Part shown: positions 33,650 to 62,702 of the stretch, in pieces
Layout of the letters: each line of letters begins with the position of its first letter
How positions within the stretch are numbered: the first letter of the stretch is position 1
Source: Marsupella aquatica
Lineage: Eukaryota > Plantae > Marchantiophyta
Assembly: GCA_973895155.1 (NCBI GenBank)
Contig: OZ316895.1
Location: 12,159,929 to 12,223,928 of the forward strand
Direction of reading: 5' to 3'
Length of the DNA stretch: 64,000 nt
Notes under the pieces: generated by a model
Seen by the model: the letters and a program-made list of their open reading frames with translations, nothing else
Database searches by the model: none
What the model was told of the DNA's origin: nothing
Translations under genes and position numbers: made by a program

Positions 33650-34811
33650 TGGACTAGGTAAACATATATAGATCTAGTACCAGGCTAGCGAGGTGGATAG
33701 TTGGAGGGCATTATGTCCATTTGATATGCCCAGCCTTTAGCACAGCTGGCACTATGCATGGAGATGTTCTCCATTTTTTGTACTTTTGTCCTGGATATTT
33801 CATTTTTGTATATAAGATGTAGTTACGCCGTGTCATGCCCGGGTTTCAAGGTACATAGTGTGCAATCAAAATTGATAGTCTCTAATCCATCAACTAAATG
33901 CCCTCTCTAAACTCTAAATAAAAACTCAGTTAAAGAATTAAATTGCACCCCAATTAAACCCCAAATTAGGCCCCCATTTAAAATCAGCCCAATCAAGCTC
34001 GCTTAATAGTTTCCGGTAGATACCGATCCATATCCGATGCCACAATCATCGTACTTTTCCATCCCCAAAGTATCACAAAGTCCAATTTTACTATCATCGC
34101 AATTTCCGTTCCAAAAACAATCGGACATTTGCAATCTCAAACAAATCAGGCATTTCCATGTCGAGACCATCGGTCTAGAATTGGATGCCTCCGCTAACAA
34201 AAAATGCGTGGAACAGACATCCGATTAAACGGGCATCGGACATAGTATTTCTCGACATTTTAAAGTACGGAACTCTCGAATGTTTAAGTATCGGTAGTTC
34301 CGATTGGTTTCCGATTGTCGTTTTCCGATACAAATTACATCACAAAATGTGATTCTGGTATTGGACAAGTGAGATTTCCACGTCACACTAGAAGAAAATA
34401 GGGCCCTTTATGACCAATCACCCAATGACGGAGATGAATAAATGACCAAAATTTCTAATGACACAAAAAGAATGACAGGGGAATGACTGTCCACAATGAC
34501 CAATAGACTGAAATGACAAAATGTTAATTTTTGCGTCATTTTGTATAATGTCTGTAATGACTGATGCGACCAAAATGACCCAATTTCCCTAAATGGTCAA
34601 TTTAGATACATGTCCTAAATGACGCAATTAATAACAACAATGATAAATCAGTGTTTAGCAACATTATAGTCACTCTGGACAATGATTAAAATGACCAAAA
34701 ATCTATTTGGGTCATTTTGGACAACGGTGATAAATGACAAAAAATGTATTACCGTCATTTTAACCAACGGTGTTAAATGACTAAATATAGGGTCAATTTG
34801 AAAATAAAAAT

Positions 34812-35380
34812 ATATCAGTGTTTACAACAACATATTGTCAATATGGACTTCTCCTATAAATGACTAACTCTAGGGTCAATCTTGAAATTAGGACATATCA
34901 GTGTTTACAACAACATATTGTCATTATGGACTTCTCTTATAAATGACTAACTCTAGGGTCAATCTTGAAATTAGAATATATCAGTGTTTACAACAACATA
35001 TTGTCATTATGGACTTCTCCTATAAATGACTAACTCTAGGGTCAATCTTGAAATTAGGACATATCAGTGTTTACAAGAACATACTGTCATTATGGACTTC
35101 TCTCATAAATGACTAACTCTAGGGTCAATCTTAAAATTAGGACATATCAGTGTTTACAAGAACATACCGTCATTATGGACTTCTCTCATAAATGACTAAC
35201 TCCATAGTCAATCTTGAAATTATGATATATCGGTGTTTACAACAACATACTGTCATTATGGACTTGTCGCATAAATGACTAAATATAGGGTCAATCTAAA
35301 AATCACGATATATCAATGTTTACAATAACATACAGTCATTATGGACTTATTGCATAAATGACTACTTATAGAGTCATTGA
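34812..35380. repeat. Tandem array, 7 x 83 bp
   Basis: Unit ATATCAGTGTTTACAACAACATATTGTCATTATGGACTTCTCCTATAAATGACTAACTCTAGGGTCAATCTTGAAATTAGGAC starts at 34812, 34895, 34978, 35061, 35144, 35227 and 35310. Confidence 0.95.
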
Positions 35381-35419
35381 AGAACCCAAGAGATATGAAG
35401 ATTAAAATACTCAATAGTC

Positions 35420-38400
35420 ATTCCAGACACCAGTCATAATTGTAGAGTCATTGATATAGTGGATAACCCTTCCACTAAGTGCGGGACACAATACTCATCA
35501 TTGTCCTCCCACTGGTTGCGGCATTAGCAATTTGAACACATGTCTTGCATTTACTTTAGGCATGATGCACCTAGCTTTGGGGAAATCACTCCCAAGTCAT
35601 ACACCTTTGGAGTGATTTTCCAGAAGTGTCACCATATATAGATGCGCGCATACTATTGAATCCAAAGGCAAATGAAACCTTTTTGTCTCTCCAAGAAGTA
35701 GGGCAATACCAATGGAAGGTTGTCATCCTTTGTTGTAATTGTGTCATGTTTGTGCCGGTGTTTGGATGGGGAATATTTTAATTTGCAAATAAATAGTGAT
35801 GGGGCATTCAAGGAGCTAGTGTAATCTTTATTGGGTCATTTCTAAAAACATTTGCATCACAAATACCAATGACTACAAGTAGGGTCATTAAATATGTCAT
35901 ATGGACTGTCATATAAGTCAAGTGACTAGACTTGTGGTCATTTGTGTGGTCCCTCATGCAGTCATTAAGCAGAAGCACAAATGACCAGTTTGGGGCTAGG
36001 GGCTGCAGGTGGGCCCTAGAGTGCCATGGGGCCCCACATAGAGGTGAGAACCCATCCACTAGGTGCGGGACACTATACTCATCATTGTCCAACCACTAGT
36101 TGCGACATAAACACTTTGGACACATATTTTTGCGTTTAAGGCATGATGCACCTTTGGGGAAATCACTCCCAAGTCGTACGACTTTGGAGTGATTTGCCAA
36201 AAGTGTCACCACGGATGCATACCGTCACATCCAAAGGCAAATAAAAGTTGTTTTTTGGTTCTCCAAGAGGTAGTGCTACACCAATGGAATGGGCAGGGGA
36301 GTTGTGCTTCTCAGTATGGTGTGGGTGCGGAATTAGGGATGAGGAATATTCCAATCTTGCAAGGAATCTAAAGTTTGCTCTCTTTGGAGGTACTAGGGCC
36401 TTTATTGGGTCATATGTGAGCAATGGCCCGTCATAAATACCAATGACTAAAAGTAGGGTCATTAAAACTGTCATATGGAGAGTCATATCAGTCTAATGAC
36501 TGGATTTGTGGTCATTTGAGGGGTCCCTCATGCAGTCATTAAGGAGAAGCACAAATGACCAGTTTGGGGCTAGGGGCTTGAGGTGGGCCCTAGAGTGCCA
36601 TGGGGCCCCACATAGAGGTGAGAACCCCTCCACTAGGTGCGAGACACTATACTCATCATTGTCCAACCACTAGTTGCGACATAAACACTTTGGACACATG
36701 TTTTTGTGTTTACTTAAGGCATGATGCACCTTTGGGGAAATCACTCCCAAGTCGTACGACTTTGGAGTGATTTGCCAAAAGTGTCACCATGGATGCATAC
36801 CGTCACATCCAAAGGCAAAAAAAAGTTGTTTTTGGGTTCTCCAAGAGGTAGTGCTGCACCAATGGAATGGGCAGGGGAGTCATGCGTCCCTCTATGATGT
36901 GTGTAATGTTTAAAGGTATACGAATATTCCATTTTTTCAAGGAATGTACAGGGGGCTCTCTCTGGCGGTACTAGGACCTTCATTGGGTCATTTTTTAACA
37001 AAGTCATGTCATAAGTGCCAATGACCTCAAGTAGGGTCATTGAAATGGTCATATGGGATGTCATATAATTCAAATGACTAGACTTGTTGTCATTTGAGGG
37101 GGTCTCTAGTGCAGTCATTGAAGACAAGCATGAATGACCAATTTGGAGCTAAGGGCTGGAGGTGGGCCCTAGAGTGCCATGTGGCCCCACATAGAGCTCG
37201 CAACCCCTCCACTAGGTGTCAAATGCTATATTTACTATTCTCCAACCACTAGTTGCACCATTAGTAGTTTGGAGCCATGTTTTTGTGTTTATTTAAGGGA
37301 TGATATAATGTTGGGGAAATCACTGCCAAGTCATACGACTTTGGAGTGATTTGCCAAAAGTGTCACCATTGATGCATACCATCCTATCTAAAAGGAAATG
37401 AAGCCATTTTTTTTGTCTCTGCAAGAAGTAGTGCCAGGCTGTCGTCCTTCCATGTAATTGTGTCATGTTTGTGCCTGTGCTTGGATGGGGAATATTCTAT
37501 TTTGCAAATGAATAGTGACGGGGCACTCAAGGAGGTAGTGTAATCTTCATTGAGTCATTTCTGAAAACATTGGTGTCATACGTACCAATGACTACAAGTA
37601 GGGTCATTAAATCTGTCATATGGGCTGTCACATAAGTCAAATGACTGGATTTGTGGTCATTTGAGGGGTCCCTTGTGCAGTCATTAAGCAGAAGCACAAA
37701 TGACCAGTTTGGGGCTAGGGGCTTGAGGTGGGCCCTAGAGTGCCATGGGGCCCCACATAGAGGTGAGAACCCCTCCACTAGGTGCGGGACACTATACTCA
37801 TCATTGTCCAACCACTAGTTGTGCCATGAACACTTTGGATACATGTTTTTGCGTTTACTTAAGGCATGATACACCTTTGGGGAAATCACTCCCAAGTCAT
37901 ATGACTTTGGAGTGATTTGCTAAAAGTGTCTCCATGGATGCATACCATAGGTGCCGAAGGCAAAAGAAGCCCTTTTTTGTCTCTCCAAGAAGTAGTGCAA
38001 CACCAATGGAAGGTTGTCATCCTGTGATATAATTGTGCCATGTTGGTGCCGGTGTTTTGATGGGGAATACTCCATTTTGCATATGAATAGTGTCGGGGCA
38101 TTGTGAGTAGGTGTTGTAATCTTCATTGGGTCATTTTGGAGGAATAGTGTGTCATTAATGCCAAAGACTGCAGTAAGGGTCATTTTTGCAGTCATTTTGG
38201 AAGTCATTTGTGCACAATGACTGCATATGGGGTCATTATAGAGGTCCCTCATGGTGTCATTATGGACCATCAGAAATGATCCTTTTGAGTCTAGGAGCTT
38301 AGGGTGGCCCTAGTGTGCCATGGGGCCCTACATGAAGGTGACAACCTCTCCACTAGGTGCGGGGTACTATACTCACTATTCTCCAACCACTAGTTGCACC

Positions 38401-39400
38401 ATGAACACTTTGGAGCCATGTTTTTGCATTTTGTTAAGGCATGATGGAACCTTGGGGAAATCACTCCCAAGGCATACGGCTTTGGAGTGATTTGCCAAAA
38501 GTGTCACCATAGATATATACCACCACATTCAAAGTTAAATAATAGTTGTTTTCTTGTTCTCTAAGAGTAAGCGCAAAACCACTGGAAGGTTGTTGTCCTT
38601 CAATTTAACTATGTCATGTTTGTGCTGGCGTTTGGGTGAGGAATATTCTATTAAATTGCTAAGGATTTGCCATGGGCCACTCCGATAGGTAGTGTAATCT
38701 TCACTGGGTCATTTTGGAGTAAGGGTGTGTCATTAAAGCCAATGACTACCATATGTGTCATTTTGACAGTCATATTGACAGTCATTTGGACCAAATAACT
38801 GCATAGCTGGTCATTACAGAGGTCCCTCGTGGTGTCATTATGGACCAACCTAAATGACCAGTTTGGGGATAAGGGCTGGAAGTGGGCCCTAGACTGGGGC
38901 CATACATGGAGCTGGCAACCTTTCCAATAGGTGCAGGACACTATACTTACTATTCTCCAACCACTAGTTGCACCATGAGCACTTTGGAGTCATGTTTTCG
39001 CAATTACTAAAGGGATGATGCAACCTTGGGGAAATCACTCCCAAGTCATACAACTTTGGAGTGACTTGCCAAAAGTGTCACCATCACGCATTGTTGTATT
39101 CTATCCAAAGGCAAAGAAATATTGTTTTTGTCTCTCCAAGAGGTATATAGTGCAATACTAGTGGAAGGCTATCGTCCTTCTATATATGTATGTCATGTTT
39201 TTGCCGATATTTGGATTTAGGGTATTTTCTATTAAATTGCAAAGGACATGTAAGGGGGCACTCCTAGAGGTAGTGTAATCTTCATTGGGTCATTTTGGAA
39301 CAATGGTGTGTCATTAATTCAAACACCTCAAATTAGGGTCATCTTGGCTGTCATACTAGAGGTCAAAAGTACCAAATGACAGGAAATGTGGTCATTCAAA
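35420..39400. repeat. Tandem array, 7 x ~575 bp, each unit with a palindrome
   Basis: Anchor AAATCACT at 35583, 36160, 36738, 37317, 37883, 38458, 39032 (spacings 577, 578, 579, 566, 575, 574). Confidence 0.93.
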
Positions 39401-41219
39401 GCATATTGGGGGGGGGGGGGTTTAGGGTGAAGTTACAAGGGAGCTCATTGAGTCTAAAAGTTTAGGGTCATTCATGCGGTCATATTGGAAGCCATTCATC
39501 TTGTCATATTGGAGGTCATTGATGCATGCATATATGACTGCGGACATAACCTATCACCCAAAAAACATGGTCGTTGCATAGTTAATTACACTAGTGTAAT
39601 GCACAACATCCTCACCTCCCATGAAGGATTAATTTGTTTAAATGAGGGGTGGGTTATGGGTTTAGGGTCCAAATAGGTTTCCCCTTGGTCCAAATGGACC
39701 TTTTATATCATGGGCGTCCTTTTTTATATATAACATTGGTCCTTTTTTTATATATAACATTGGTCCTTAACATTCTTAACCGTTTTGTTTCAAGGAAAGT
39801 GCCCAAATTGGTGTATAGATAGGGACACTTTACTCATCTTGGCACTTGCAAGGGACAATTGATGTTAAGGCATTCATGTTGGTAAGTGCCTTGGCCTTAT
39901 GGGGTTTGGTAAGTGTGTTGGCCTTTTGGGGGAGCCTGAAATTAAATTTAACCTTGCCTTCCCTAGGGCCTTAAGGGGGGGGGACTTCACTTCTTGTGTG
40001 AAGTAAGGAGCAAGAAGACTCAAGGTGTACGTTTTGGGTCATTTGAACGGACGTTCTGGGTCATTTGAATGAAGCGGACAAGGCCAATCCAACGGTATGC
40101 TTTCTCTCACACATTTGCGGGAGCCCTCTTTCCTGAAAAAACATCGAGTCTTTTGTTGAATGTGCTCATTTCTTGGAGCGCCTTTGTGTGCACATTGCAA
40201 GCCTCCGTGGAGCTCCGACCCATTTGGGCTGCAAGGGTTTTTTAGTTGCCATTTCTGTTCATTGTGCTGCGAGTTGGTGGAGAAGTGTGCTGCGCGGTCA
40301 AAGAAGACTTGTTGGGGAGGAGCTTCGATTGGGTCTGTGACTCTTTTCACTGTGAGCCTGCCCCGGGAGCCTGCGCTTTTTTTAGTGTGCTTTTTTCAAT
40401 GTGTGGGGGGCAACAGAGCGCAAGCAAGCTGCTGCTTGCAAGTTCAAGGCGGAGGTCGCAGGTAATGCTCCAATACGCTACTGTGATCCTTTGCTTGCCA
40501 CATTTTATGCTATGTCATTTGTCTGCTCCGCATTCGCTGCTACATTTCCGGTTGTAGCTTGATTTTTTCCTAGAGGTGAGCTGAGCAGAGGTGAGGTCTC
40601 GTTGCTAGGAGGTGGGGAGTTCAATGTAGGGGAGTTTTGCGCGCGGTCCCGAGTGCCTAGGTTATCATCATAAGCACATCCGTTTGTTCCTTTTACTTGC
40701 ACATGCGCCTGCTCCCTCCCCTCTGTGCTTCCGTAAAGACTTGACGTTCAATGTTTGGCTTTCTTGGCACACCACGTTACTGAGCGCTCGTTGCTTCAGG
40801 GTGCTTGGCACATTGGTGAGGGTTGTGCAGCGTCGATGGCCCCCTCACGCGGATTACATGGCCATCGCTCCTGGCTGCATTGTGCCTTGGTAGCTTGGTC
40901 AGATGAGGTATGAGGCATGCTCAAGGCTTGGGTTGCGCAGCTAAGATTATCACTGAGCTGCCGTCACGGAAGGAGCTGCGGGAGTTCAAGGGCTCAAGGC
41001 AATCTGTGACAATCTGCAATTGGCAACAAGCTACTGGTGATTGAGGAGTGGGAGGAGTGGTGAGGAGCGGTGTTCGGGTGACCGTGTTTTCTGGAAAGAG
41101 CATGTTGGCTCTTTTGAAGTTAACCTTGCATGCTCATAAGTTCTACACTAAAATCAAAATGATAATTCTAGTAACAAGGGTAGTGGGTATTAAGAAAGGT
41201 TCAGGTGAAACTAAAATAT

Positions 41220-42173
41220 TGTTAAACCCTAATTCACCATACTTGCGGACCAACACATCATGAAAATTAGTTTTCTTACGACATATGATCCTAATATCTC
41301 CAAGAGAAAATGAAACAGGAATATCATCCGGACTCCTATTCAGATCCATGACTTCAATAAAGGACAAAGATGATGCACTCCCACTCCTCTCGGTACGACA
41401 TCACTGAGTATATTATTGGCTCGTTAGAAATCATAACAGCAATTACAAACTGAGCTCCAAAATGATAGGTTAGATATTGCCTCATAGATGGTTTATCTAA
41501 AAGATGGACTCTAATCAAAAACGGATTACGAAGGGGAAGATCAGGGATAACTCTCTCTCCTGGATTCATGATGGCTCTCCTATTCCTTTGCTATCCGGGC
41601 CAAAGGACGCCCCACCCCTATATTTCCAAAGAAACCTTATTCCCTAAGGTCCCATCTATAAGTCTACCACTCATTTCTTTGCTATCCGGGCCAAAGGACG
41701 CCCCACTACTATGTTCAAGGCACAAAAGAGCTTCCCAACCTTGAATGATAAACACTGCAGAATGAGGGGAGAGTGCCCCTCACCACTTTATTTATAGTGC
41801 ACACCAAGAGGGCATGGATCAAGCCCAAGCACTTGGATGAAGGCCAAGTGTCAAACATCTAATACCTAAGAGTGTGCTAGTACTATTCATAGTTGGTGAA
41901 ACTACTTTTAGTAGGTGGAACTACCATGCGTTGGTGGAACTACTATGCGTTGGTGGATCTACTATGCGTTGGTGGAACTACTATGCGCTGGTGGACCTAC
42001 TGTGCATTGGTAGAATCACTATGCGTTGGTGAATATTATTGTAGTTGGTGGAACTACTCATATGCATTGGTGGAACTTCTATAGTCCGTTAATATAGCTA
42101 AAGAAGTTTAATAAAATTTAAATTTAATAATCTAACTACTAAATTACTATATAATCTATAGCATATTAAAACA
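41220..42173 (-). mobile_element. Probable solo LTR (~950 bp) inside the CACTA
   Basis: TGTTAAA...TTAAAACA termini, flanks AATAT/AATAA (4/5 match), minus-strand TATAAATA at ~41789-41797, duplicated CTTTGCTATCCGGGCCAAAGGACGCCCCAC, and a ~19 bp minisatellite GTTGGTGGAACTACTATGC (~41892-42080). Confidence 0.5.
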
Positions 42174-44431
42174 AATAATTTTTTATAACTTAAGAGAAAA
42201 TCACGACAGCGGGTGAAGACGAGCTGCAATTGGCAATCAACTATAGGAGGTTCCAGAGTGGAGGAGTTACGGGAGTTGAGGAGTTGCGATAGCTGTCCAT
42301 TGTTGGAAGTGGGAGCTTCATTGCACTGTCTTTGCAGTGCAACAGCCATTGTCGGACGGTGGTGGGAGGAACTAAGGACTTCCATTTGTGGGAGCAAGTT
42401 TGGGCTTTAAGGGTAAGCGCATGTGTGATCATGCGATGGTTAGAGTTGGGGTTTCTCTCTGTTTTTTTTGTCTTAATCACAACCTGGACCCTCTTTCCGA
42501 CCTTGTCTCAATGTTCATGGAGCTTTACATGTGCCTGCAATATATGTGTTGTCTTAAAGGATCCAGACATATTGAATGTAATCAGTCTTAAAAACTATTC
42601 GTGCGAGGACCGCCCTGCAGAACAATTGAACACCATACACCTCAAGCTTATAATTGCAAAAAGAAAATCAAGCTTACTGTCTCCAAATGACAGTGTTCCT
42701 TTCTATCTGCTATTGATTTGCTGATTTCTGATTTTGTTATAGTGGAACATTAAACTTCTGTTGTGATCTGAGGATCTCCCTTCCTTAGCAACCGTGTCAT
42801 CATTCCGATCAATATATTGCCTACAGTCCAAGCAAGAGAGATGATTATACCTCATAGATCGCTAATGAGCACTTCAGGGACCTGTGGAACATAATGCCAT
42901 CGTACGAGAAGAGTAAACAGGGACCTGGGCCTGTGTCTGGTAAAATGTGCTCGTGATTAAATGTAGCCAACCAACCCATGGTGAATGCCATCCTACGGAT
43001 GTAACTGCGCCCACTTTGTGTATGTCTCCTGTAGTTCCTCCTCAGCATCAATTTTTTGTGTCTGCTGTGTTTAGTTTTGATAAGTTATTGTGTTGTCTTT
43101 TTGTCGTCTGGCAATTATTGCCTCAAATGCTATTGTATCTTTTTCTATCTCTTCCAGTATTTCATCATATTAGCATTGGCAACATTTGGTGTTTATGCGG
43201 CTGATGCCAAAAGTTTTTGGCTCGACCCTGTTTAATGCCTGAGTGGGCCAGGATTGCTTCTGCCTGAGTGGAAGGCTGGTCTGTTTAATGCTGCCTAATT
43301 GAACATAAGAATCTGCTAGTAAGTTCATGGAGTTTAGGCAAATCAGGATGCATCACCCTTGTACCCAAAAATTATTTTGGCAATGTTTGCTCTGTTTGTT
43401 GTGTTGAAAACTTTATTGGCAGTGTCTGACCATGAAAGTCAGCCTGATGTTTTGCCAATCTTTTTTGAGTGTGCTGGAAAAGTCCTCATTCAGAAAGACC
43501 TAAGAAATTTAACTATCTTGAACAAGCTTTATCGTTAGTTCTGGCAAAATCTGTCCACCCCAAGCGAGGTTTGATTAACTAAGGGGAGAATTTGCCATCA
43601 AATGATTTCAGTCTTTTACTTCAAACGAATAAATTTTGTTACAGAGAATGATCCAGAAGAAGTCTTGTCACGTTAGGAGAGTACTAACCTTCCTAGACCT
43701 GACGCAACTTGGGATGGATCATCGCCTGGTTATCTCCCGCTTTAGACTCTGGGTAGAATTTCCCGATGCTATGCAGGGACAAGGTGAGAACTTTATTCAT
43801 AGCCTTGACCCAGGTTTACTTCAGGGCCACTGCATTTTTCTCCTTTGCTAGTTGCTGCATTTATCATTTGTCATGATTTGATTGTGTGATTGTTTTGAAG
43901 TCGTAGCCGTGGTCAAAAGCTGGTCTATAAAAAACGAATTCAGGTTGCTGCTGTATATAAAGTGCAGCAGGATCCAGAACTGGAAAACTGTCCCAGCAAA
44001 TTTAAATTTGTAGCTCTCACTACTTGAATATATAAATTTGCCCTGATCGGTCTTAGCCTACTGCGCACAAGGCAGGCAATGAAACAAGTTTGTCCATTTT
44101 AAAACTTGAGAACCAATGCTTTGCTGAAACTCAATTGCTATTTGTTTTGTGTTGCCCTTACAGATTTTAAAAAGGCAGGGTGAGTGAGCACTGCTGGACA
44201 GCAGAGCGAAGGCATACAGGTTGCAATATTTGTGATTGCTTCCAATCATAGGCCAAGGTTATTTGCGCTGCTCAGTCCTAGTGCTTTGCCATCCGTAAAG
44301 CATTGGTTTATGTTGCACCCTTGTAGTTACATGTCATATTTTATGCTGCACCCTCATTCTTTTGTGTCATGCTGCACCCTGTTATTCCTTCGTGTTTCAC
44401 AATCTGATGTAGGGTCTGAGTGTGCAGGACC

Positions 44432-45091
44432 ATGGCTCGCAATAAGCAGAAGGCCATGAATCGTTGCAGAGGTGAATCCTCTCAAGCACCTCAATTGTCC
44501 TTATATTCAGACATTGAGATTAACCAGAATAGTCCACATGTATGTGCAATTTGTGATGAGGGAGGGGATCTCATTGTTTGTGATGGGCCTTGCCATCGAC
44601 ATTTCCATAAGAATGTTTCCTGTCCTTTGGGTCAGCAATGGCTATGCCCAACTATATCCCTGGCTGATGGCCATGTTGGAGAATGGCTTTGTGTTGATTG
44701 CAAGAATGAGGAACATTCTTGCTTTAAGTGCCATGTGTCTGGAAAAATTGGTGAAGAGGTAAGAAAATGTCCAGACCCTCTCTGTGCCCGGTTTTACTGT
44801 CGGCAGTGTTTGGTTCCTGGCACAGCATCATGTGGACTCCATATTTGTCTTACTTGTGGACAGGGGCCCAATGATGGGGCTAATGGCTTTTTGGTTCAGT
44901 GCATGAGGTGTCCTAAGGCATGGCACAAGGACTGCCTATTGTTTATCCAGCAGAGGGGATTTGCCCATGATCGAACAATTTGGGATCACTCAGCGCATGG
45001 GCAGCCCAAGAAGGGGAGGTTTTACTGTCCTGACCATGACATTGACCCTACACTAGGCACTCCTGCTAGGAGCCACATATCTTGGATTTGA
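44432..45091 (+). CDS. Transposon-borne stand-alone EDM2/NSD-like composite PHD zinc-finger protein (219 aa)
   Basis: Intact ORF with ACCATGG start after a TGTGCAG acceptor. CAICDEGGDLIVCDGPCHRHFH...CVDC..HSCFKC...C.DPLCARFY...CGLHICLTC...QCMRCPKAWHKDCL...W...FYCPDHDIDPTLGTPARSHI follows the EDM2 PHD cluster from start to end (recognised by eye). Confidence 0.8.
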   Translation: MARNKQKAMNRCRGESSQAPQLSLYSDIEINQNSPHVCAICDEGGDLIVCDGPCHRHFHKNVSCPLGQQWLCPTISLADGHVGEWLCVDCKNEEHSCFKCHVSGKIGEEVRKCPDPLCARFYCRQCLVPGTASCGLHICLTCGQGPNDGANGFLVQCMRCPKAWHKDCLLFIQQRGFAHDRTIWDHSAHGQPKKGRFYCPDHDIDPTLGTPARSHISWI

Positions 45092-45691
45092 TTGAGGCTG
45101 GATGGAACACAAACTTGAGATAGAGCTTTTTGATGGTTTCATGTGGACTTAAACAATTTTCAGAGTGCTAAAACATGTGGACTATTTATATGCAGTTTGA
45201 TGAACTCCTCATGTATACACACTCTACGACAGTGCATTGCGGATTGAGGCAATTAATTTTGAGAAATCAACTTTATTATCTTTTCTAGGGTAGGATTCCA
45301 ATTTTCAAGCCTGTGCTTTGAGTGTGACTTTCCTCCGTATTGATGTCTAAACTTCACTTGTAAATTTGTCACTGGTGTCACAAACGTTACTTATTCCAGA
45401 CCTGTCCGCTCACATTCCTAATAGGCAAACAAATACTGGAAATGATGAAGGCACAGAGATTTACATTCATAGTATCATTCTGATGACACTGTATGTGATG
45501 CTCTATTTGTATGCAAGAAGGAGAAGGTGCCTCACTACAATGGATTTGAGAAACTGGGCTCTGTGGGTTTGAGCAATTGGACTGTGGTTGGCATCGGTTG
45601 TACAACTATGACGGTAGGCCCAATTTTGTATGCATGTCACACTGATTCAGTTTGAAAATCATAGTTTGAATACAATTTCAATCAAGCTAGC

Positions 45692-48600
45692 ATGGCACAA
45701 TTGCCACAGAATACGTTAGGTGTGGGTAGAACTCCAAAGTTGCCGCTCTTCCATCCAGCTAGAGTACAACATCGTGATGATGCTTTGTGGGTTCGAGAAC
45801 AGAAGGCCTGCCACAAGAGTGGGGACCATAAGATGTACTGCCCTTGTGTGAACTGCAAAGGGAATTATAGGACTAATCAGAATACTGCTAGACTGCACCT
45901 TATTAAACATGGTCAGTACCCTGCATGTCGAGTGTGGGTGGGAGAGGGACAGGACTCTTCTAATGAAGAGTGGGGTGCTGACTACATGTCACAACATGGC
46001 CTGAGGCATTGAGGGTAGCAAACCTTCAGCAGGCAACCTGTGCACAAGAGCCAACTGTAGATGTTGAAGAACATTTATTTGTAGATGTTCCAGAGTATCC
46101 AACTGTGGATGTTCCAGAGTATCCAACTGTGGATGTTCAAGAACATCCAACTATAGATTTCGACGAACATATCAGGGCTCTACTGGAAGAAACGTTGTTG
46201 AGAACCAGTGAAGAATCCCCTGAGCATGAACTAGATGATCAGGACCGTTTTGACTTGGATTTTGTACTTGGGGATGATGAGAGTGAAGGAGGTGCCCATC
46301 CTGTAAACCCCCTTGAAACCTCCGAAACTCCTATGGAGACTGATCCTGCACAGTTATCTTTAGATGCAGCAATGCAACCTTTGTTCCCAGGCAGCAAAAT
46401 AGATGTTGTGTCATTCATATTGCTTCTGCTGAACATCTGTCATGGCCATGGATTCTCAAACAAAGGAGTGAATGCATTGTTGTCTTTGATGGGGGAGCAT
46501 GGTATGCCTGCAGAGCATAATCTGCCCAAGAACTTATATGCTACAAAGCAGCTATTGAGAAAGCTTGGCTTAGATTATGAGAGAATCCCTGTCTGTGAGA
46601 AAGGTTGCATGCTCTTTAGGGGTGAGAATGCCAAGTTAGAAAACTGTTCAGTGTGTCAGCAGCCCAAGATGAAGAGAGTGGGGAATTCATTACAGGCAAG
46701 GAAGGTGGTGCGGTATTTCCCTATAATTCCCAGGTTGAAGAGATTGTATGCCACTGCTGGTACATCTAAACTCATGACTTGGCATCATGAGAATAGAAGC
46801 ACAGACAACATGGTTCGGCACGCAGTAGATTCCAAGGCTTGGAAGCATGTGGATACAAATAGTGATAAAAAATTTGCAGCTGAACCAAGGAATGTGCGAT
46901 TTGGGTTGGCACTTGATGGGGTGAATCCCTTTGGGAATAATTCCACAACTTGGTCTACCTGGCCAATCTTGTTGTTGAATTACAATTTACCTCCTTGGCT
47001 TACCACCAAGAAGTTCTTTGTCATGCTAGCTATGCTGATTCCAGGACCTGATTCAGTAACAGAGGAACAACTGGACATAATATTGGGCCCATTCTATGAG
47101 GAGCTGGAGCTGTTGTGGACGAAAGGAGTGCCCTGCTTTGACAAATTGCCATGCCCAGGATTGTCTCAACACTTCAACCTAAGGGCTGTGCTATTGTGAA
47201 CAATCAATGATTACCCTGCATATGGTTTAATATATGGACAACAACACGCTGGATACAAAGGATATGTCATCTGTGGGCCAAAATGTGTGGCACATGGTTC
47301 TAAGCACTTGCAGAAATTAGAGTACAGTGGCCACCGTCGATGGTTAGCAGCAAGGCATCTTTTTCGTAGACCAGACAGTGCACAATACTTTGATGGTGCA
47401 ATTGAGAGCCGACCTGCACCGTGTAGAATGTCAAGCTCTGATAGAAAGAAGTGGGGAGACGAGACAACAGAATATTTGAAGAAGGGAGGAACCAAGGTTG
47501 AGGATGAGAGCTGCCCCATAAAGGTGCATGGAGTGAAGAGGGCTATTGGTCTGTACAAGTTGCCCTATTGGAACGTAAGACTCCATACTACTACAATGAA
47601 TTTCTGCAATCTCTTCATATGACTTTGAAATGTGTGTACTTCCTGTAGCCCAGATTTTGTAATTGTTGTATTCAATGCCCTAATTTCTGAATTGTGTGTC
47701 CACTGCAGGAACTACTCATTAACCATTGTCTAGATCCCATGCATTGTGAGAAGAATCTTGCACACAACATTGTGCACACTATCATTGGAACCAAGGACAC
47801 TCCTTCTGTGCGAGAAGACCTGAAGCTCTTACAGGTGCGCCAACACCTATGGCTTGTACCCAATCCAGCTCCCAAGCGTAAGGATGACAAATTGTTGATG
47901 CCCCCAGCCCCATATTGCCTGAGCAAGAAGGAAAGAACAAGGTTCTTGGAGGTGTTATTGACCTTGAAAGGGCCCACTAGTTTTTCAAGTTCTTTGGCAA
48001 AGTGTGTTACAAAATCCAAGAAACTCTCTAGGTTGAAATCACATGATTTCCACCAACTCATGCAACAGATTCTCCCTCTGGCAACAATGGGATTACTTGA
48101 TGAAGGGGTTCGCTTGGCCATAGCTGGGATGAGCAATATCTATCGCCAGATCTGTACGAAGGTGTGGGACCCTTCAATGTATGAGAATTTGATGATGGAT
48201 GTTGCATTCACTCTCTACATTGTGGAAATCCATTTTCCACCAAGCTTCTTTGATGTCATGACCCATTTAATGATTCACCTAGTGGAGGAATTAGACTTGT
48301 GTGAGCCAGTTACAGGCAGATGGATGTACCCAATAGAGAGGAACCTGAAGGTTTTGAAGGGTTATGTACGAAACAAGGCACGTCCAGAGGCTTCTATGGC
48401 TGAAGGCTATGTATTAGATGAGTCTTTGGGATTCCTTTCTGAATACATGACTGATGCTAAGGGAGAGGGAAAACGAACCTGGGAGTTGGAAGAGGATGCT
48501 GGCGTTGCAGGCATTGTCTTGGAAGGGGCTGCAAAGGAGATAACTTTGAATTGGTCTGAAATGATTGCCATGCATCATTATATATTGGAGAATGAAGAGA

Positions 48601-49592
48601 CAGTGGCTCCATGGTACAGGTATGTAAACCCTGGTACCATATGGATCATAAGTATGCTGCCCCATTGTGTTTGTATATTCATGGTGGATCATGCACTAAT
48701 GTCTTGAGTGCTGTTGTTGCCATGTAGGATATATGATGCTACCAATGAGACTGTTACCAAACAAAGAGTGGATTTCCGGAAGGAATGGATGAGGAAGCCT
48801 GCCAATCGAAGAAAACCAGTGGAATTTCCCCTTGACTGCCAAGAACTGCCACCTTTCAGGGAATGGTTTCAAACATTAGTCAATACCCATAATTTTGAGA
48901 TAGAGTCTGAGCGGTCATTACTATCTGCATACTCCACACCACCTAGTTTGAAGGCACGATTGTATAGGGCATGCAGAGCCTATGGGCATCACTGGAGGAC
49001 TATTCCAACCTTGGGGTGTTTGAGTGATTGTGATTCTAGTGCATTCAACACTTTTGATTCTGGGATGGCTTCGACATTCACTGAGAAGCGAGTGGACAGG
49101 TCTGGTGCAACTAGAGAAGAATCTGTACAGTATGTAGGGGCCTTGACAGATATCTTAGTACTGAATTACGGCAGCTTGAGGAAAGAGGTGATTCTTTTCA
49201 AAGGGAAATGGGCAGATCCATCATGGACTCCTAAATCTTCTGCCAGTATGAGGTATTCTGAGTCTAGTCTTTGGCAGGTGAATTTCCATAGAGAACTGGG
49301 TGTGTCCAAGAAAATGGATTACGTTTTTCCAAAGCAAGTGGAGCAGGTTTTCTTCCACCCCAATGAGAAGGGGATAGCATGGAGAACAATCCTCCACAAA
49401 GAATCCAGGTCCACAAGGGTGTTAGGTGATTACATAGACGTTGATTTCCATGCTACAATGGAAAACAATGCCAAATTACACATCGAATTCGCTAAGGCCT
49501 GTAGGTCCAGAGCAAATCCAGGACCAAGTACTGGTCCCAAACGAGGCAGAGCTGCACAGGGATCTGCAAGAAAGGGCAGGCCTAAGCAGTGA
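45692..49592 (+). pseudogene. CACTA Tnp2/TnpD transposase (Transposase_21 + DUF4218-type regions), disrupted
   Basis: N-terminal CPCVNC...HLIKHG; LALDGVNPF, L*TINDYPAYG (TGG>TGA at 47197-47199), DPMHCEKN, LKSHDFH, WMYPIERNL...EASMAEGY. Introns 47575-47708 and 48620-48727; frame break near 46010. Confidence 0.92.
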
Positions 49593-49679
49593 ATATGTTT
49601 TAGGTGTGTGAAGTCCATAGATGGACTACATGTATGGACTATATATGAAATTAGACTAATGGTTTACCCATTTGTGCAG

Positions 49680-52600
49680 TTGGTGAATGCAGCCTGTGAA
49701 AGGAAGATTGCAGGGATTGTCACATTCTGTGAATCCTTATGAGGAGGCCCGAAAGCGGAACATAGAGCATAATGTCAAAATTATGCATGATCTAGGACTG
49801 GGGCCAGGCTGCATGCTGATGTGTGTGTTAATATGTCTGTTGCAAATTTGATTCAGTAGATGAAGTTGTCAGGTTCATGTTCTGTTTTCATATTCCAGAT
49901 TGGCCTCATACTAGTATGGATCCTGTACATAAGTACTAGTGTTACAGTGTTGTAGATTCATTTTGCATGTATGTTTGATCTACATTGGTGTATGTTGATG
50001 ATTGCTTTGTTCCTTAGAGGCCCAACCACACATGTACAACGAGAGAGAGGAAAGCCTGCTTTGGTGAAAGGTACTTCAACTGAAACATTGCCAAAGAGGA
50101 GGAGCTCTAGACTATCAGAAGTTACCAAGGTGAACATGGCAGAGTGTGGTGATGATGGCTATGGTTCTTCTTCTGAGTATGACACTGAGGATTCTGACAT
50201 TGGAGGGTCAGAACCAGAGAGTGAACAACAGGTAATGCTTGAACTTCATCATCCTAATAGGAAGGGATCCTTGTCCCTTTTTCAAATTATATGTTGATAT
50301 GCTTACGTTGTCCATGATGTAGGTACAAAAACAAAATCGTGGTCCTAAGAAGACTGGGCCTGGTGGAGGTGGGCTGGTGAGATGTTGGAAAGACCCAGAC
50401 ACTGGACTCTTATATGAAAGTGAGTGGATTGTACTGTTCTACTTTTCAGGTGTGTTTGGAAGTTGATATTCTACTTGGAAATGAAATTAATTGAAGTGCT
50501 TTGGTGTTGTGTATTTGTTTAGTGGTTCCATCAGCATCTGAAGGCAGATCAGGTCAATCTGATGTACTACATTCCAGAGGATCTTCAGGTAATACACAAT
50601 CTGCTCGTCATGCATATGAAAGAGCATTTGCTCAACTTTTCAATCATGTACATATTTTTTGATTGAATGCATGTGTGTGCATTGCAGGCGGGGCCTCTGA
50701 GATGCGCAGGGAACGAAGGCATGCTAAGAAGCAGTTTGATAATACTGCCAAACAACGAAGGGATCATGGAGATTTGCCCAAACACATTAAAGTGAGTATT
50801 GTACTTTTTTTGAATGTAGATTTAGACAAATCTGATCCTCTCTGTTGTTGTGTGTATAAAACTTGGACTCTTCATAAATTCCAGAGTTATGAATTGACAT
50901 TGTCTGTGAAATGCAGATTTATGACAATGATATTGATGATTCTGATGGCAACAAACAATACTGGCTGGAGGAACTTCGTGGCAACGTACTCAGAGTCTTT
51001 GATGTATCAAAGCCAAAATGGACTGATCATCCACAAGTTCATACAACCACAGTGTGGAATAACATGGCAGCTGAGTGGAAGTATGTGGGTGGGGAATTTA
51101 TTAAGACCAAATTCCAGAGTCATTGTCGTGGCATATTGAAGAGAGAGTGCCATAAAATGCATGTTTACTGGAAGAAAGTTTGCAATGAGGATCCAACCAA
51201 ACCTGGGCCATCTGGTGTTGATCCAAAGAAATGGGCAGCTTTGGTATCTCATTTTACCAGTCCAGCATTGATATCTTTGAGTAAACAGATGACTGATAAA
51301 AGAGCACGAGTGCAAGATACCTCTCACTTTGGAAGAGGAGGGCATGTTGCAGCAACAAAGAGAATGGTAAATTGTGGCCTGTATCATTTTCACTATCAAT
51401 TCTGTCTTGTTTGTGAATCTTGATGAAAACAGACTCTGTGATTCTCATTCATTGTGTGTTTGAACAGAAGCAGAAGAGAGGATCAAGCCCAGGTATATCT
51501 GACCTGAAACAAAACCATGGTAGTCAGGGTTCATTGCCAAAGGTGACAATGAGCCCATCATTGGCAAGTGCAGAAGGTCAGACTGGTAGTTTTGTGGGAG
51601 CAAAGGTGAGCCCATCATTGGCAAGTGGGGAGGGTAAAAGTGCTAGCTTACTGGGGCGAGGAAACAGACATGGATCAGCTGTGAGTATTGTCATACCAAT
51701 TTGATTTGTACGAACCCCTCCATTTGACAGAGTGTTGTGTCGTTTGTAAGTTTGACAGTGAGAATGTTGTGTTAGTTTGTGGTTCATTTACAGACCCCAC
51801 ATTCAAAAGAAGAAATCACTGCCATTGGGGCTGTGAAATTGGATGTTGCTGAGTTGAAAGGCACTGTGAGAGAGTTGACAAACATGATGACTACGTGGAT
51901 GGCACATCACACCAGTAATGCACAAGTTCCAACAGTTGTACCTAGTCACAGTAAGTTGACTACAGCTACCAAACAAGGTAGTAGAAAGCGATCTCTTACT
52001 TTTTCAGGTGATAATGAAGGTAAAATTCTCTATCATGTATACACTGTCCATTCAATGTAATTATTGTGATGTGTATATGTTCATTGCATGTTTATAATGT
52101 TCTTGCATGTTTTTAGTGTGATTATATGTTGCTGGTGTATACATGTTTGTTTATGCATTTCTTTTGTGTGTGTTTTATGACAGCATCTTTAGGGGAGCCT
52201 CCTGTGTCGCAGGGAAGACCAACTGACACAGCTAACAGTTCTTTGAAGCAAACTGAATTGGAAGTGAACCTTTTGCCATCTAAGTTGCCCAAAGAAGCCA
52301 TTTCAGATGCCTTTCAGTTGCCAGAGGATAAGTCAAATCAGCTGACACCAGATGTAACCCCAGAATCATCTGAGTTGCCAAAAGAAACTCCTATTCCAAG
52401 TGAGCAGGATGACACTCCATCAACTAGAAAGGGAAAGAAGAAAAGGAAGAAAGGATCCTCAGCAAATGCATCACCTGCACAGAAGAAACCAATGCAGTCT
52501 CCTAACCCCATTGCAAAGGTAAATGTGTGTTTGATTTGAGTGTTCTTCTATCTTTCAATTTCTGTTTATTGTATTTTTAACAAAATGTGTTGTTCACAGT

Positions 52601-52860
52601 TTGCAAGAGGAGATTTGGTGAAGATGAAGAGCGTTGTGGACAATTCCATGATAGTGGCAAAAGGTGAGGTGACAGGGCTGCCAGGAGAAGATAAGTTTCA
52701 TTGTGCAAATTTTGAAAGCCCTTTCTTGTGAGTGCGTGTGATTGAAGTGTTTGTAGATGTGGCATTGCCATTTGCCAATGCAGGGGAGAACCAGTCTAAA
52801 TTATCTGATGTGAAAGGATGAATGCCCTATGGAACTCTAGATTGCTTAAGAAGCAATAGA
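49680..52860 (+). pseudogene. CACTA TnpA-like multi-exon accessory gene (Transposase_24/Transposase_23-like)
   Basis: Exons with PSGVDPKKWAALVSHFTS...KRARV..SHFGRGG (~50918-51366) and C-terminal VAKGEVTG...KFHC...*VRVIEVFVDVALP containing a stop. Confidence 0.65.
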
Positions 52861-53199
52861 AATAGCACTCTGTCAAGAAACACTAGACATGATAGAATGA
52901 CAGCTCTGTTTTTCTATAAACATGCAGAGTGATTGGTATGTTAGGTTATAACAATTGACAATCTAATATTATTGATGTCAATGTAGTTTTGTTTCATAAA
53001 TTTGCATTGAGTTCAATAGTTACTGTGAGACTTATGAAGGTATCTTGTATGAATGTCAATTGGATTTGTGATATATATAGAATGTTTCTTTAAGTTTTCA
53101 TTAAGCAAATCTATTGAATGGCTTTGTAATGTATGATTTTTGATTGACATGAAGTTTTATCTATCATGATCACTTAAATTTGAATTTCTCCAAATCATT

Positions 53200-53907
53200 G
53201 AATACTTCACCTGAATGACTGGCTAGAATGACTGATGTAATGGTCATTATCCACAACTATCTTTGTGACCAATATGACTCAACTCTGGTCATTAAAGACA
53301 TAGACTAAATGATTCAAAGAATGACATATTCAACGACCGTTCTCATGGTCATTATAAACAAGTCCACTATGACTCACTTTATGTCATTCAAGTCATGTCA
53401 TTAATGACTAATGTGTTCTTTACGTGCCTCCTCCCAATTGAACCACGTGTCTCAATATGACTTGTTTATACCATAGTCATTTTGGACACGTCTAAAATGA
53501 CGCAAATATATTGTCAAATGATGATAACTCTTTGAACCACGTGTCACTATTTGATTTGTTATATAATGTACGTCATTTTGGACAAGTCCAAAATGACCAA
53601 TGTTATTTGTTTTTGATTGCCACGTGTCGTTGTGTGATTGGGTACGGGGACCATCGACGGTCAACGGCAATTGACCGTCGATGATGATTTGTGTAGTCAT
53701 TTTGGACCGTTCAGCATTTATGACCATATCATAAAAACGGTCATTTAGGATAGTATGAAATGACCACATGTTTTTAGCGTCATTTGTCCAAAAGGACCAT
53801 GACCAAAATGTCTGTTGTGACGCGTCTGGAGAGACAAGAACGATTGCGTCATTGTTTTGTTAAAAAGACCTGATTAATAGTCATTGTTTCCGTCATAAAA
53901 TACATTG
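53200..53907. repeat. Right subterminal motif cluster of the CACTA
   Basis: Many AATGAC/ATGACC/GTCATT motifs in both orientations, the same motif family as 34410-35460. Confidence 0.8.
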
Positions 53908-56900
53908 TTTTCTACTAGTGTTAGATTTCCTGAAGGCGTCCAATGGAAATACAATTGGTAAAACGCTTTTAAATGTACTAGTGTTGTAAATCCTTTCTTC
54001 TAATGAAAATGGAGAATTTTGTCAATCTTTGATGGAACAAGCTTACCAAACTCATTGATGAACTTATTTTCATTTTACCAACATTTAAACTCTTTTGTTG
54101 TGCCAACTTGATGAAGTCCTTGGTAAGACCACCACATAACCTCTTCAGATTCTTGTTTGTCAAGTGGTATTTCTGACACAACAAAGCCATCTCATGTTTC
54201 TTGTGATTATTCCAAAGGGAATTAACATCTGTGCGGTTATTTTCCTGATAATCACCTAAGTATTCAATCAAATATATTTGAAATATTTTTTTGACTTCTT
54301 ATTCAGATAAATTTGTTTCATTAATACTAATAATTTTTTTGTAACATCTGCATCATGGTTTGCAGTAAGGAGTCTATTTTTTAAACAGCCAAGAAATTTT
54401 CTTTTTCTTGAGCAAGCATGAAGCTATTTTGTGAAGATTTTCTTCTTCCATTCTTTGTAAATCCTTGAAAAATGTTTTGTTCAATTGCCATATTGTTTGT
54501 GTCTTGTAATCATTGAACTCTTTTTGCATTTTCCATTGAATGAAATCATTTCTTCCTCCCAAGACTCTTCAAACACACTTATTCATTTTTGGAAAACTTT
54601 ATCAATCATTGTAAAAATGAATATTTTAAAAGTGAAACGTTGATGAGTTTTGCGCCCCAGGAAATACCAATCTTTGCAACATTAAGAAATAGATTGAAAA
54701 ATGCTAAAATATTTGTGTTAGATCAATAGAAAAGGTTACAGCCCCTAGCATATGCTAACCATTATTGAGACTACTGAAAATGATCGAGGAAAATTCACAG
54801 ATCTTCATTAGATATAGATAAGATTACAACCTACGAGTTATGCTAAATTATCTTCCAATGAGACCCCTTGACTAGCGTGTTGTCCTTTTGGGAGTAGCCA
54901 AACTCTTTTCAAACGGTCTGAGTCTATGAAATGACAAGAGGAAAAGTTTGCTTGAGCATCTAACCTTGTCCTCTAGATATTGTTGAATGCTCGGGGCAAG
55001 CTCATCAGGGTCACATTGTTCTTGGTGTTATAAAGAGCCCAAAATATTACTCTAATATGGGCCAGTTGCCTTCCAAAAATCTTGAGTTCCCGAAAAGAGG
55101 AACTTCAGTCTATATTTCTTTATGAGTATCTAGTGTAGTCTAATAGACTTCAAGTATCAGTCATCAATTTTATTACTTGAAAATCCACTAGTTTAAGAGT
55201 ACGTTGGCTGATAGGTCTTAGACTCTTCCTATTCTCATTCCTTGGTCATGTCATTTGATGGTGTCGTGAGATTTTCTCATGTATGCATCAAACTTGCATA
55301 CCAATACAACTTTTAAATATTTCAAAGATTTTCAAAAAATAGCGGATTAAAAATACATATCAAATTTATTTTAAAATACTTAAAATTATGCAAGAATGTT
55401 AAAATAAGATATTTCCAACCCTCGACAAAGTTTTATCGCAAATAAAGTTGAAATTATGTTGAAATCGTGTTAATTAATTAGGGCAAAAATTAAAGAAATT
55501 TGGAAGAATCTGGTATACAAGAAAGACAATATATTTTTACAATCTAAATTTTAGGCTTAATCATAATCTATTATGTATAAGAAGATAACTTTCAAAATTT
55601 GAACTAAAATGAAAATACAATTTGACAAAAATATGTGAATCAAGATTAGACCATAAATTTGGTTTATTAAAAATTGACTAATTAAAAAATTTTGTTTGAT
55701 TTTTTAAAAAGATTTTAAAGAAGATTTTTAGAATCTTGAAATCTTGATCACCATTTTAGATATTGGATCGAATATTGAATTAGGGAAGCCAATTGTTTTA
55801 GAAAGTAGTCCACTGTTAAAAAATAGCTCATTATTTAGAAAATAGCTCATTGTTTTATGAAGATGCACACTGTTTTAGAAAGTAACTCACTATTTTAGGT
55901 AGTCAAGTCCATTATTTTAGAAAACCAAGCCTATTATTTTGGATGTTGAATCCAACATTTAAGATCTTTGAATAATATAAATTAGTCCCAAGAGGTGGAG
56001 CAATGACATTAGATGAAAGCAATATCCAAGTGCTGTTAATCTACAAAATTGATGCTCTATGAGTGTAGTAGGGAAAAGCTTATGTAGTGAGTTTTTTTTC
56101 AATGTGACCTTTGTGGTTCATAGTATAGGAGGAGAAATGTTCCATCTCCATAAGCTTCTTCCATATATAATATGATAGCAAGTTGACATTTAGTAGAATA
56201 TTTCTAATAATTAAACTTGAGAAGATTATCTATATCAATAGAATTATATGTTTTATAATATACAAATTCTATGAAAGAGTCACATTTGAAATTTGAAGTT
56301 GAATCGGATGGTTATACCATCGGTTTTTATGATAATAAATTTTAAGATCTACTTTGGTTTTGGAGAGTTATGCTGTAGTATGCTATCAAAACCAAATATA
56401 TAAAAATATGAACTAAAACCAAGAATTTCAACCCACGACAACAAGTAAGAATGAATAGAATGAACAATTGTATGATTTGAGTGATTTAAAAATGATTTCT
56501 CATCACATACATAAAGCCAAATAAATAAAGATAGGTAATTAACAAAACACGAGGAACAAAAATTTATTTTCTGTAAGGGTGACAAAATGACTTTTAGAAC
56601 CAAGATCGGAAGTACTTGCACTCCATCATCGCTTCTTAAATAAGAATTGCGGGCAATTTTAAGATGTTTGGTATGAGACAAGTCTAACTCTTCAGTGGTT
56701 GCTTCAACTTATCATACTACAAGTTCCTTTGAATTGACTTCTCATGCTCACCAAGTCCATCATATATTTCTTGCTAAAACTATTGGAGGATCAACATTAC
56801 AATGCCGTCAACATGAGTTCTCTCATAGCGATGCGCAATTTAGAAAGAACTACTAATGTATACACCTTCAATAATTAAGCGATACTAGATAGAATGAAAA

Positions 56901-62047: not shown

Positions 62048-62702
62048 GCGGAGCTGGGGTCGGTCGGTCATGCGGTCGCCGGGGTCTAGCTCTCGACAAC
62101 TTCTTGGCCTGCTGCTTGGTCGTAAACTTGGCTGTGCTGCTGCTGATGCCGCCGCCATCGCCATTCGCCGGCAACGGAAGTAGTGTGGCCTCTCGTGGGT
62201 TCGCGTTCTCGACAGGATTTTGCGCTTAGTAAGTGTAGTGGTTCCACGGCTGGACATGGACCGTTTCTTTGTTGTTGCGGGGGGGCCACCGAAACAGCAG
62301 CAGGAGCAGGAAGGCAGGATCGTGGAGGGCGCAGGAAGGGAGGAAGGAGGAGGAGGAAAGCGTGCTGGTGCTGCTGGTGCTGGAGAGGAAAGGGGCGGGC
62401 GCAACGGCAATCCGCAAACGCGAAATGCCAATCGGAGGCACGGAAGGTAAACGCTGCAGGCAGGCAGGCAGGCGAACGACGACGACGACGAGAAAAAGGA
62501 GCCGTGATTCAACGAAAGGGGAGGGGGGATCCCGCCACGTTGAGGAGGGCTCGTCACGCTATCTCGGGGATGAGGCAGGCAGGCAGGCTTCTCGGTTTGT
62601 TCCATCTTACCTGAAAGAGCGACCTACGAGTCGGGGCTCGGGCGGGGTTGAAATTGGGCTTTCGCCGGGACGACGGGCCCGTCCTGTGGTGTTATCCCGT
62701 CC

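Follow-up and report, generated by a model that had tools for sequence, protein, structure and literature searches.

A CACTA transposon in Marsupella aquatica carries a selected EDM2-type PHD-cassette gene with an apparent histone H3-like leader

The 64,000-nucleotide stretch of Marsupella aquatica DNA analysed here, referred to as the window, contains a CACTA transposon in which an open reading frame for a small EDM2-type PHD protein is located upstream of the transposase gene. This PHD ORF is under purifying selection and very probably represents a selected, resident gene of the CACTA family in the window. By its sequence the encoded protein is of EDM2 ancestry; it belongs to a clade of stand-alone PHD-cassette proteins that is apparently undescribed, and it begins with a conserved leader motif which, as far as sequence comparison goes, is in register with the tail of histone H3, imperfectly so at positions 3, 6 and 10. 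The H3-like motif and the wider protein family are additions to a sequence-only reading made earlier of the same DNA.

What would a transposon gain from such a protein? The escape of plant elements from silencing by H3K9 methylation and DNA methylation is understood at the molecular level for very few cases, chiefly VANC. The PHD ORF is a compact, selected and multi-species candidate for a different route, in which the host's heterochromatin reader would be combined with an apparent virus-like histone mimic.

The CACTA element and its genes

The element that bears the ORF extends from 34386 to 53920 (~19.5 kb) and is a CACTA (En/Spm) element by its termini with short TIRs, its subterminal repeats at both ends and its Tnp2/TnpD transposase. 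Its main parts, other than the PHD ORF, are as follows.

34386..34399, plus strand: left CACTA TIR, flank TCA; 12/14 match with the right end
34400..35422, no strand: 5' subterminal AATGAC/GTCATT repeats, including an 83-bp x 7 tandem array at 34774-35364
35454..39396, no strand: ~575-bp x 7 tandem array in the 5' region of the element, periods 566-579 bp, with a 50-70-nt palindrome per unit
45692..49592, plus strand: Tnp2/TnpD transposase gene (Pfam), intron-bearing; broken near 46000 and at 47197-47199
49956..52870, plus strand: TnpA-like multi-exon gene, boundaries approximate; in-frame stops in the last exon
53200..53906, no strand: 3' subterminal AATGAC/GTCATT repeats
53907..53920, minus strand: right CACTA TIR, flank TTA; 12/14 match with the left end

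The terminal match of 12/14 is by itself not unique, as the 130 x 141 candidate ends yield 8 pairs of this kind, and 7 other end pairs within the window equal or outscore it. The pair 34386/53920 is preferred because AATGAC/GTCATT clusters abut it on either side, at 19 per kb each as compared to 0.67 per kb for the part of the window outside 33001-55000. The flanks TCA and TTA would make up a 3-bp duplication with one mismatch. The units of the ~575-bp array contain many ATGAC/GTCAT motifs, and the array recalls the tandem targets of VANC proteins; its period is beyond the reach of the tandem finder, which hence missed it. A palindrome with CACTAGTG at 39583-39596, where this array ends, could be the end of a nested element or a footprint.

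Pieces of the Tnp2 gene match the Pfam families Transpos_assoc, Transposase_21 (E 1e-39) and DUF4218, with DUF4216 falling below cut-off, and this copy of the gene carries one frameshift and one stop. The third gene is called TnpA-like on weak evidence. Its five pieces are without a Pfam match at E 0.1, an Atlas cluster at 0.92, in which 19% of the proteins have Transposase_24, serves as a lead only, and its last exon contains two in-frame stops.

The PHD ORF and its protein

The gene of interest and the parts of its product are listed below.

44412..44427, plus strand: two candidate 3' splice acceptors (predicted) behind a stretch rich in pyrimidines, at 19 and 4 nt from the ATG
44432..45091, plus strand: stand-alone EDM2-type PHD-cassette ORF, 219 aa (translation, Pfam, alignment)
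44435..44464, plus strand: H3(1-10)-like N-terminal motif, matching A1, R2, K4, Q5 and A7, without T3 and without a K9 equivalent
44543..44701, plus strand: PHD finger 1 (C38-C90); the best single-finger PDB matches of the family profile are AIRE, CHD4, PHF21A and TRIM24
44720..44842, plus strand: PHD finger 2 (C97-H137), with a His-to-Cys ligand (C123) and loss of a long host insert; ligand pairing inferred from the alignment
44846..45088, plus strand: variant PHD finger 3 (C139-H202) with the EDM2-type ending YC..H.I...L.TP.R.HI (Pfam, alignments)

The sequence-only reading had described an intact 219-aa ORF inside the TIRs, co-oriented with Tnp2 and about 600 bp upstream of it, which encodes little more than a PHD cluster with an EDM2-type ending, and this description is confirmed. 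The ORF (44432-45091) translates without a stop, ends in YCPDHDIDPTLGTPARSHISWI and is placed within the CACTA ends at 34386/53920, and the distance from its stop to the Tnp2 ATG at 45692, on the same strand, is exactly 600 bp. In Pfam the protein matches PHD families alone, with PHD_NSD (E 1e-8) and PHDvar_NSD (2e-7) both past their cut-offs and PHD and PHD-1st_NSD below theirs. It thus consists of a short basic leader followed by an EDM2-type three-finger PHD cassette and nothing else, and the whole cassette aligns with residues 227-444 of a named EDM2-like protein (29% identity, E 1e-19). The term intronless, also used in that reading, applies to the coding part; the two possible splice acceptors shortly ahead of the ATG, at distances of 4 and 19 nt, leave room for an upstream exon.

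With regard to structure, an AlphaFold model of family member P0002, built from a 31-row alignment, has a mean pLDDT of 76.6, with most 10-residue blocks of the cassette at 70-96, as compared to 34.7 with a 5-row alignment. Within the model the leader is unstructured and undocked (residues 1-8 and 10-28 have pLDDT <50). The closest PDB folds are the PZP and NSD PHD5-C5HCH modules, at modest E-values, many of which were solved with H3 peptides. At the level of sequence the family profile has its top PDB match in the PHD1-3 cluster of NSD2/NSD3 (E 3e-14), after which come the fingers of AIRE, CHD4, PHF21A and TRIM24, to which finger 1 is nearest. These four fingers are readers of the unmodified H3 N-terminus. 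No solved plant relative of the EDM2 cassette was returned by the PDB search, and histone H3 itself was absent from the profile search at E up to 1.

A stand-alone family among the EDM2 relatives

The protein is not alone. A first protein search gave 3 matches among 8 candidates, at identities of 83, 71 and 52%; a search of representative proteins gave 374 matches, the five best among the 150 listed being short proteins that rank above every full-length EDM2; and a profile search gave 36 matches among 982 candidates. Together these define a family of about 38 stand-alone proteins plus one near-duplicate, mostly of 210-245 aa, into which short fragments were placed on the basis of score and visual inspection. 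Of the 38 members, 22 (187-278 aa) have finger 1 as well as the C-terminal ending, and many entries are truncated or frameshifted. Species annotation is absent from all 14 members that were looked up. The missing annotation, the diversity and the frequent truncation suggest that the distant members are probably transposon-borne as well. No longer protein that fuses the family cassette was found, the 1 match among 1339 being an EDM2-like protein of Chenopodium that aligns along the full cassette at 29% identity; this is weak evidence. Pattern searches for related loci gave 0 confirmed of 74 and 96 matches in metagenome contigs, 4 in viral sequences and 32 in prokaryote genomes.

The origin of the family was addressed with a tree of 55 rows, 17 from the family and 38 others picked from the matches, from which frameshifted, duplicate and short rows were excluded. 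All 17 stand-alone proteins form one clade with support 100/100 and a stem of 0.93. Its place is inside the EDM2-like group of green plants (99/93) and, with weak support, inside the land-plant part of that group (84/89); the bootstrap is not fully settled. The tree, with the alignment of the cassette to an EDM2-like protein, bears out the EDM2-type origin proposed in the sequence-only reading. As this careful tree leaves the sister group of the family open, no donor lineage is claimed. A first quick tree had placed the family close to liverwort EDM2-like paralogues; in a second quick tree the family lay outside land-plant EDM2.

The family has diverged from the host proteins. Identity between the window protein and the 38 non-family cassettes sampled, a sample outside which the window's own host gene lies, reaches 39% at most. 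All zinc ligands are retained, as is the finger-1 core GG.L..CDG.C, and residues Q32, C123, R181 and H186 are invariant in 17/17 members. The His-to-Cys change at 123 is found in 17/17 family sequences, where 24/25 hosts have His, and the long host insert of finger 2 is gone. The acidic residues that precede finger 1 in host proteins have become an invariant Gln and a His, and because of this replacement the specificity may differ from that of EDM2. The position of the stop and the new clade-wide features are conserved across members that are just 41-54% identical.

A number of other short proteins were observed alongside the family. The liverwort EDM2-like paralogues P0012, P0013, P0015, P0017 and P0024 end shortly past the PHD cassette, one of them being the 280-aa Marchantia Mp4g03050, and the liverwort short EDM2-like paralogues together with P0026 form a clade of their own (97/95). 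P0044 (from the grass Eleusine), P0101, P0115, P0028, P0106 and P0116 are short PHD-cassette proteins that the trees do not group with the family, and they may have arisen by independent truncation; P0044, P0101 and P0115 begin M-A-R-[KM]-K.

Copies in sequencing runs and selection

Between 22 and 57% of sampled words from 43600-46400 are present in six public runs from three organisms; no RNA run is among those listed, which carries no information on expression. Contigs were mapped from 4 of the 6 runs, with the 3 organisms covered, and in each of the 4 runs 30/30 bins across 43000-47700 are covered, with depth, which is not a measure of copy number, alike over the ORF and the Tnp2 start. On the 706-bp ORF stretch there are 6, 401, 116 and 21 contigs across the 4 runs; the 401 in run X2 and 116 in run X3 therefore point to many variant copies. 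One contig of 1204 nt from run X1 covers 44329-45531 without a gap and with 16 differences, and so takes in the ORF and the greater part of the spacer; its depth is 701 against ~840-1830 over the Tnp2 start. A diverged contig of 2279 nt matches parts of both the ORF and the spacer with their spacing preserved. Among the contigs listed, none joins the ORF to the Tnp2 ATG, and the linkage of the two in other copies is inferred from contig tiling and depth. Since contigs of 4/4 runs read through both Tnp2 breaks, these breaks are private to this copy. The contrast drawn in the sequence-only reading between an intact PHD gene and disrupted neighbours is thus true of this copy and does not extend, for Tnp2, to the copies in the runs, which are intact at the breaks.

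Selection was assessed from sites that vary at >=5% of depth, pooled over the three organisms, with double changes in a codon scored singly. Of the 31 variant sites listed, 19 are synonymous and 12 non-synonymous, where a synonymous share of 21-30% is expected; the resulting pN/pS is 0.17-0.27, with p from 1e-6 to 3.4e-4 over kappa 1-10. An apparent stop variant at 44940 in run X2 has a depth equal to that of the change at 44939, and the two together read Gln; it was counted as non-synonymous. There are no indels in the ORF at >=5% of depth among the variants listed, and minor contigs over the ORF have gaps of 1, 4, 13 and 14, which are not multiples of three. In its CpG o/e of 0.19 the PHD ORF resembles Tnp2 (0.23) and differs from two host genes (0.59 and 1.03).

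A long-resident transposon gene, as opposed to a fresh capture, was what the sequence-only reading had inferred, and this is supported: of the four outcomes that it gave as refuting, three are absent. The ORF is multi-copy, with many variants beside the transposase in the runs of three organisms; its pN/pS is not that of a neutral sequence; and there is no near-identity to the sampled host cassettes, from which it is far removed.

The H3-like leader

The leader motif can be written [AST]-R-x-K-x-x-[AS]-x-[KR], in register with H3 residues 1-9 (H3 peptide reference as printed in PMC3022755), and P0002 starts with five residues identical to H3 1-5. A site sampler run on 34 leaders, with no histone supplied, returned a single motif with R in 30/34, K in 28/34 and A three places on in 22/34; the near-duplicates P0005 and P0010 and the leaderless P0011, P0056 and P0081 were left out. 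In the weighted profile, using H3 numbering, A1 stands at 58%, R2 at 88%, K4 at 80%, K6 at 66%, A7 at 62% and K9 at 49%. Five of these six best-kept columns have H3's own residue, and the following eight columns are poorly kept. The family consensus departs from H3 at position 3 (P), position 6 (K, where H3 has T) and position 10.

How specific is this resemblance? With the register set after the H3 likeness had been noticed by eye, and with H3 as the tail scored, H3 1-10 obtains 13.8 bits on the profile, more than any of the 122,058 host 10-mers from 127 long host proteins and more than all 6,038 host 10-mers with at least four K/R. Permutation of the H3 letters gives p of about 0.001 (0.0008-0.0015 under three weightings), 0.0015 once the four closest mimics are removed, and 0.0006-0.007 in each of three subgroups, which were assigned partly by eye. 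The core pattern occurs in 25/34 leaders, compared to a mean of 0.31 and a maximum of 4 after shuffling, and in 0/127 N-termini of the long host proteins, and a classical K[KR]x[KR] NLS is found in just 3/34 leaders.

The likeness varies across the family. One subgroup consensus equals H3 at R2, K4, A7, R8 and K9; in the expanded subfamily to which the window protein belongs, H3 position 3 is N and the K9 equivalent is missing, and T3 makes up just about 6% of depth in run X1. The motif directly follows a Met in 13/27 cases; in the other 14/27 it sits 2-8 residues from the nearest Met, so that a pocket for a free N-terminus would be blocked. In P0007, P0175, P0177, P0180 and P0184 a Met-Pro-x precedes the motif.

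Proposed role and alternatives

The reading that is preferred, tentatively and from the sequence features above, is that of a transposon accessory protein whose cassette likely binds H3 tails and whose H3-like leader likely serves to draw off the H3 readers and H3-modifying enzymes of the host as a decoy or bait, which would loosen the silencing of the element. On this scheme an EDM2 cassette would have been captured, lost its effector domains, gained the H3-like leader and then been kept by selection beside the transposase. The PHD ORF would be expressed, possibly via splicing from the 5' promoter of the element, and the cassette would dock on K4-unmethylated and/or K9-methylated H3 in silent chromatin. 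A free mimic tail, mainly its A1-R2-K4 half, would then be presented in place of the occupied H3 tail, and the net outcome would be more transposase expression or transposition. A bolder version, which is more doubtful, is that an ancient plant CACTA lineage made the captured EDM2 reader into a counter-silencing protein, a reader joined to its own H3-tail mimic, which would be modified and read as H3 and so divert the writers, erasers and readers of K4 and K9 at silenced transposons. Rescue of transcripts in the style of EDM2 is less likely, because the protein is without EDM2's other domains. As a soluble protein of ~24 kDa with a clear mutable motif, and as a naturally occurring minimal EDM2 cassette, the product of the PHD ORF makes the idea directly testable.

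Several other explanations deserve consideration. The leader might be a mere basic patch for nuclear import or for binding DNA or nucleosomes, leaving the cassette alone to compete with host EDM2 or other H3K9me readers. The motif is indeed basic (K6 stands at 66%, against T in H3), the window's subfamily has lost both T3 and K9, and a cassette without effector domains is what is expected of a dominant-negative competitor. A basic patch, however, needs neither fixed spacing nor the small residues that are conserved at positions 1 and 7, the scarcity of a classical NLS (3/34) speaks against it, and the H3 order beats permutations of the same letters at p about 0.001; this explanation is an unlikely one. 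Next in likelihood, and unlikely too, is a self-gated reader. Its leader would fold back on finger 1 and hold it closed; upon displacement or modification of the leader the reader would open, tether the transposase or TnpA to a type of chromatin and so steer insertion. This would fit with the resemblance of finger 1 to readers of the unmodified H3 N-terminus, with A1, R2 and K4 (58%, 88% and 80%) being among the best-kept positions, with a motif-to-cassette linker that is variable and long enough for looping back, and with the PHD ORF adjoining Tnp2. It is harder to reconcile with a leader that is undocked in the monomer model and with the 14/27 motifs that have no adjacent Met, and a part that could bind transposase is not evident in the protein.

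A rather improbable alternative is that the cassette has moved past histone reading and become an adaptor, by protein-protein or nucleic-acid contacts, that serves the proteins or repeats of the element itself. There is a precedent in the NSD1 PHD5-C5HCH module, which in the excerpts of PMC8398374 used here has a protein ligand and not histones, and the long stem of the clade, the new invariant residues Q32, C123, R181 and H186 (17/17) and the large tandem arrays within the element would all be in keeping with it; against this stand the zinc ligands, all of them retained, the likewise retained finger-1 core GG.L..CDG.C, and an H3-like leader that fits a histone context best. Least probable by far is a recently captured EDM2 fragment drifting neutrally as a Pack-type passenger. 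The many truncated or frameshifted entries, the presence of both finger 1 and the ending in just 22/38, and the minor contigs with gaps not in multiples of three might be taken in its favour, but any transposon gene is expected to have copies in decay. Such a capture is already contradicted by a pN/pS of 0.17-0.27, by identities of at most 39% to the 38 non-family cassettes and by the stop position and new clade-wide features shared between members only 41-54% identical, neither near-identity to sampled hosts nor neutral evolution being found.

Comparison with known systems

The closest comparison is with Arabidopsis EDM2/ELP1 and the land-plant EDM2-like proteins, which share with the window protein the atypical PHD cluster and the C-terminal ending (excerpts of PMC7529245, PMC3632883 and PMC6208443). 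The domain list of EDM2 and its binding to H3K9me are taken from excerpts of PMC7529245, PMC6208443, PMC8762163, PMC4980392 and PMC3632883, and H3K9me1/2/3 peptides pull down EDM2 (excerpt of PMC6208443). In contrast to EDM2/ELP, the window protein is without the RFD and the acidic, methyltransferase-like and proline-rich parts; the RFD is present in the named EDM2-like protein to which the cassette was aligned, whereas the 219-aa protein has PHD families alone. The window family also differs from EDM2 in a cassette that is ~24 aa shorter at the median, in the His-to-Cys ligand, in the basic H3-like leader and in its transposon location. The PHD ORF is therefore derived from the EDM2/ELP family and is not a member of it.

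VANC of the VANDAL (Mutator-like) elements is likewise the product of an extra ORF of a plant DNA transposon, and non-coding tandem arrays are found both in the CACTA element and in VANC targets; VANC, however, belongs to another superfamily and acts by binding DNA motifs and removing DNA methylation, in contrast to the histone-reader fold of the window protein (excerpts of PMC5735166 and PMC6446971). Short H3-like motifs in the proteins of selfish elements are also known from the H3K4-like motif of influenza NS1 and the ARKS of SARS-CoV-2 ORF8, compared to which the window mimic is transposon-encoded, N-terminal and joined to a PHD reader; the excerpts of PMC13165374 on which this comparison draws contain no example of a transposon-encoded histone mimic. 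The PHD1-3 cluster of NSD2/NSD3, the top sequence match of solved structure, is without the EDM2-type ending and is an outgroup in the tree.

Chromovirus integrases carry chromodomains. The Rehavkus transposase has a PHD finger and so represents a mobile element that likewise uses a chromatin-reader domain (excerpt of PMC6446971). In both, reader and transposase or integrase are parts of one fused protein, whereas the PHD cassette of the CACTA element is a separate gene. The literature covered, with most subscription papers and Repbase outside its scope, contains no account of an EDM2-type PHD gene carried by a transposon, nor of an H3 mimic that a transposon encodes. The PHD ORF is apparently an undescribed variant among transposon-borne chromatin proteins, with a putative function.

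Other features of the window

The rest of the window contains remnants of further elements and host genes. On the minus strand, 18682-26592 is a decayed Helitron-like element with pieces of DUF6570, Helitron_like_N and PIF1, within which an upstream ORF has a weak SBP-domain match (E 4e-4, below cut-off), and 28003-29376 holds Copia-type gag and pol fragments. Immediately left of the CACTA end, 32780-33407 comprises about three copies of a 189-bp Gly/Ser-rich repeat in a seemingly decayed ORF. Finally, the host genes are one for a Rab-GAP TBC protein on the minus strand (15363-16574, open stretch 403 aa) and one for a trihelix (Myb_DNA-bind_4) factor on the plus strand (62652-63581).
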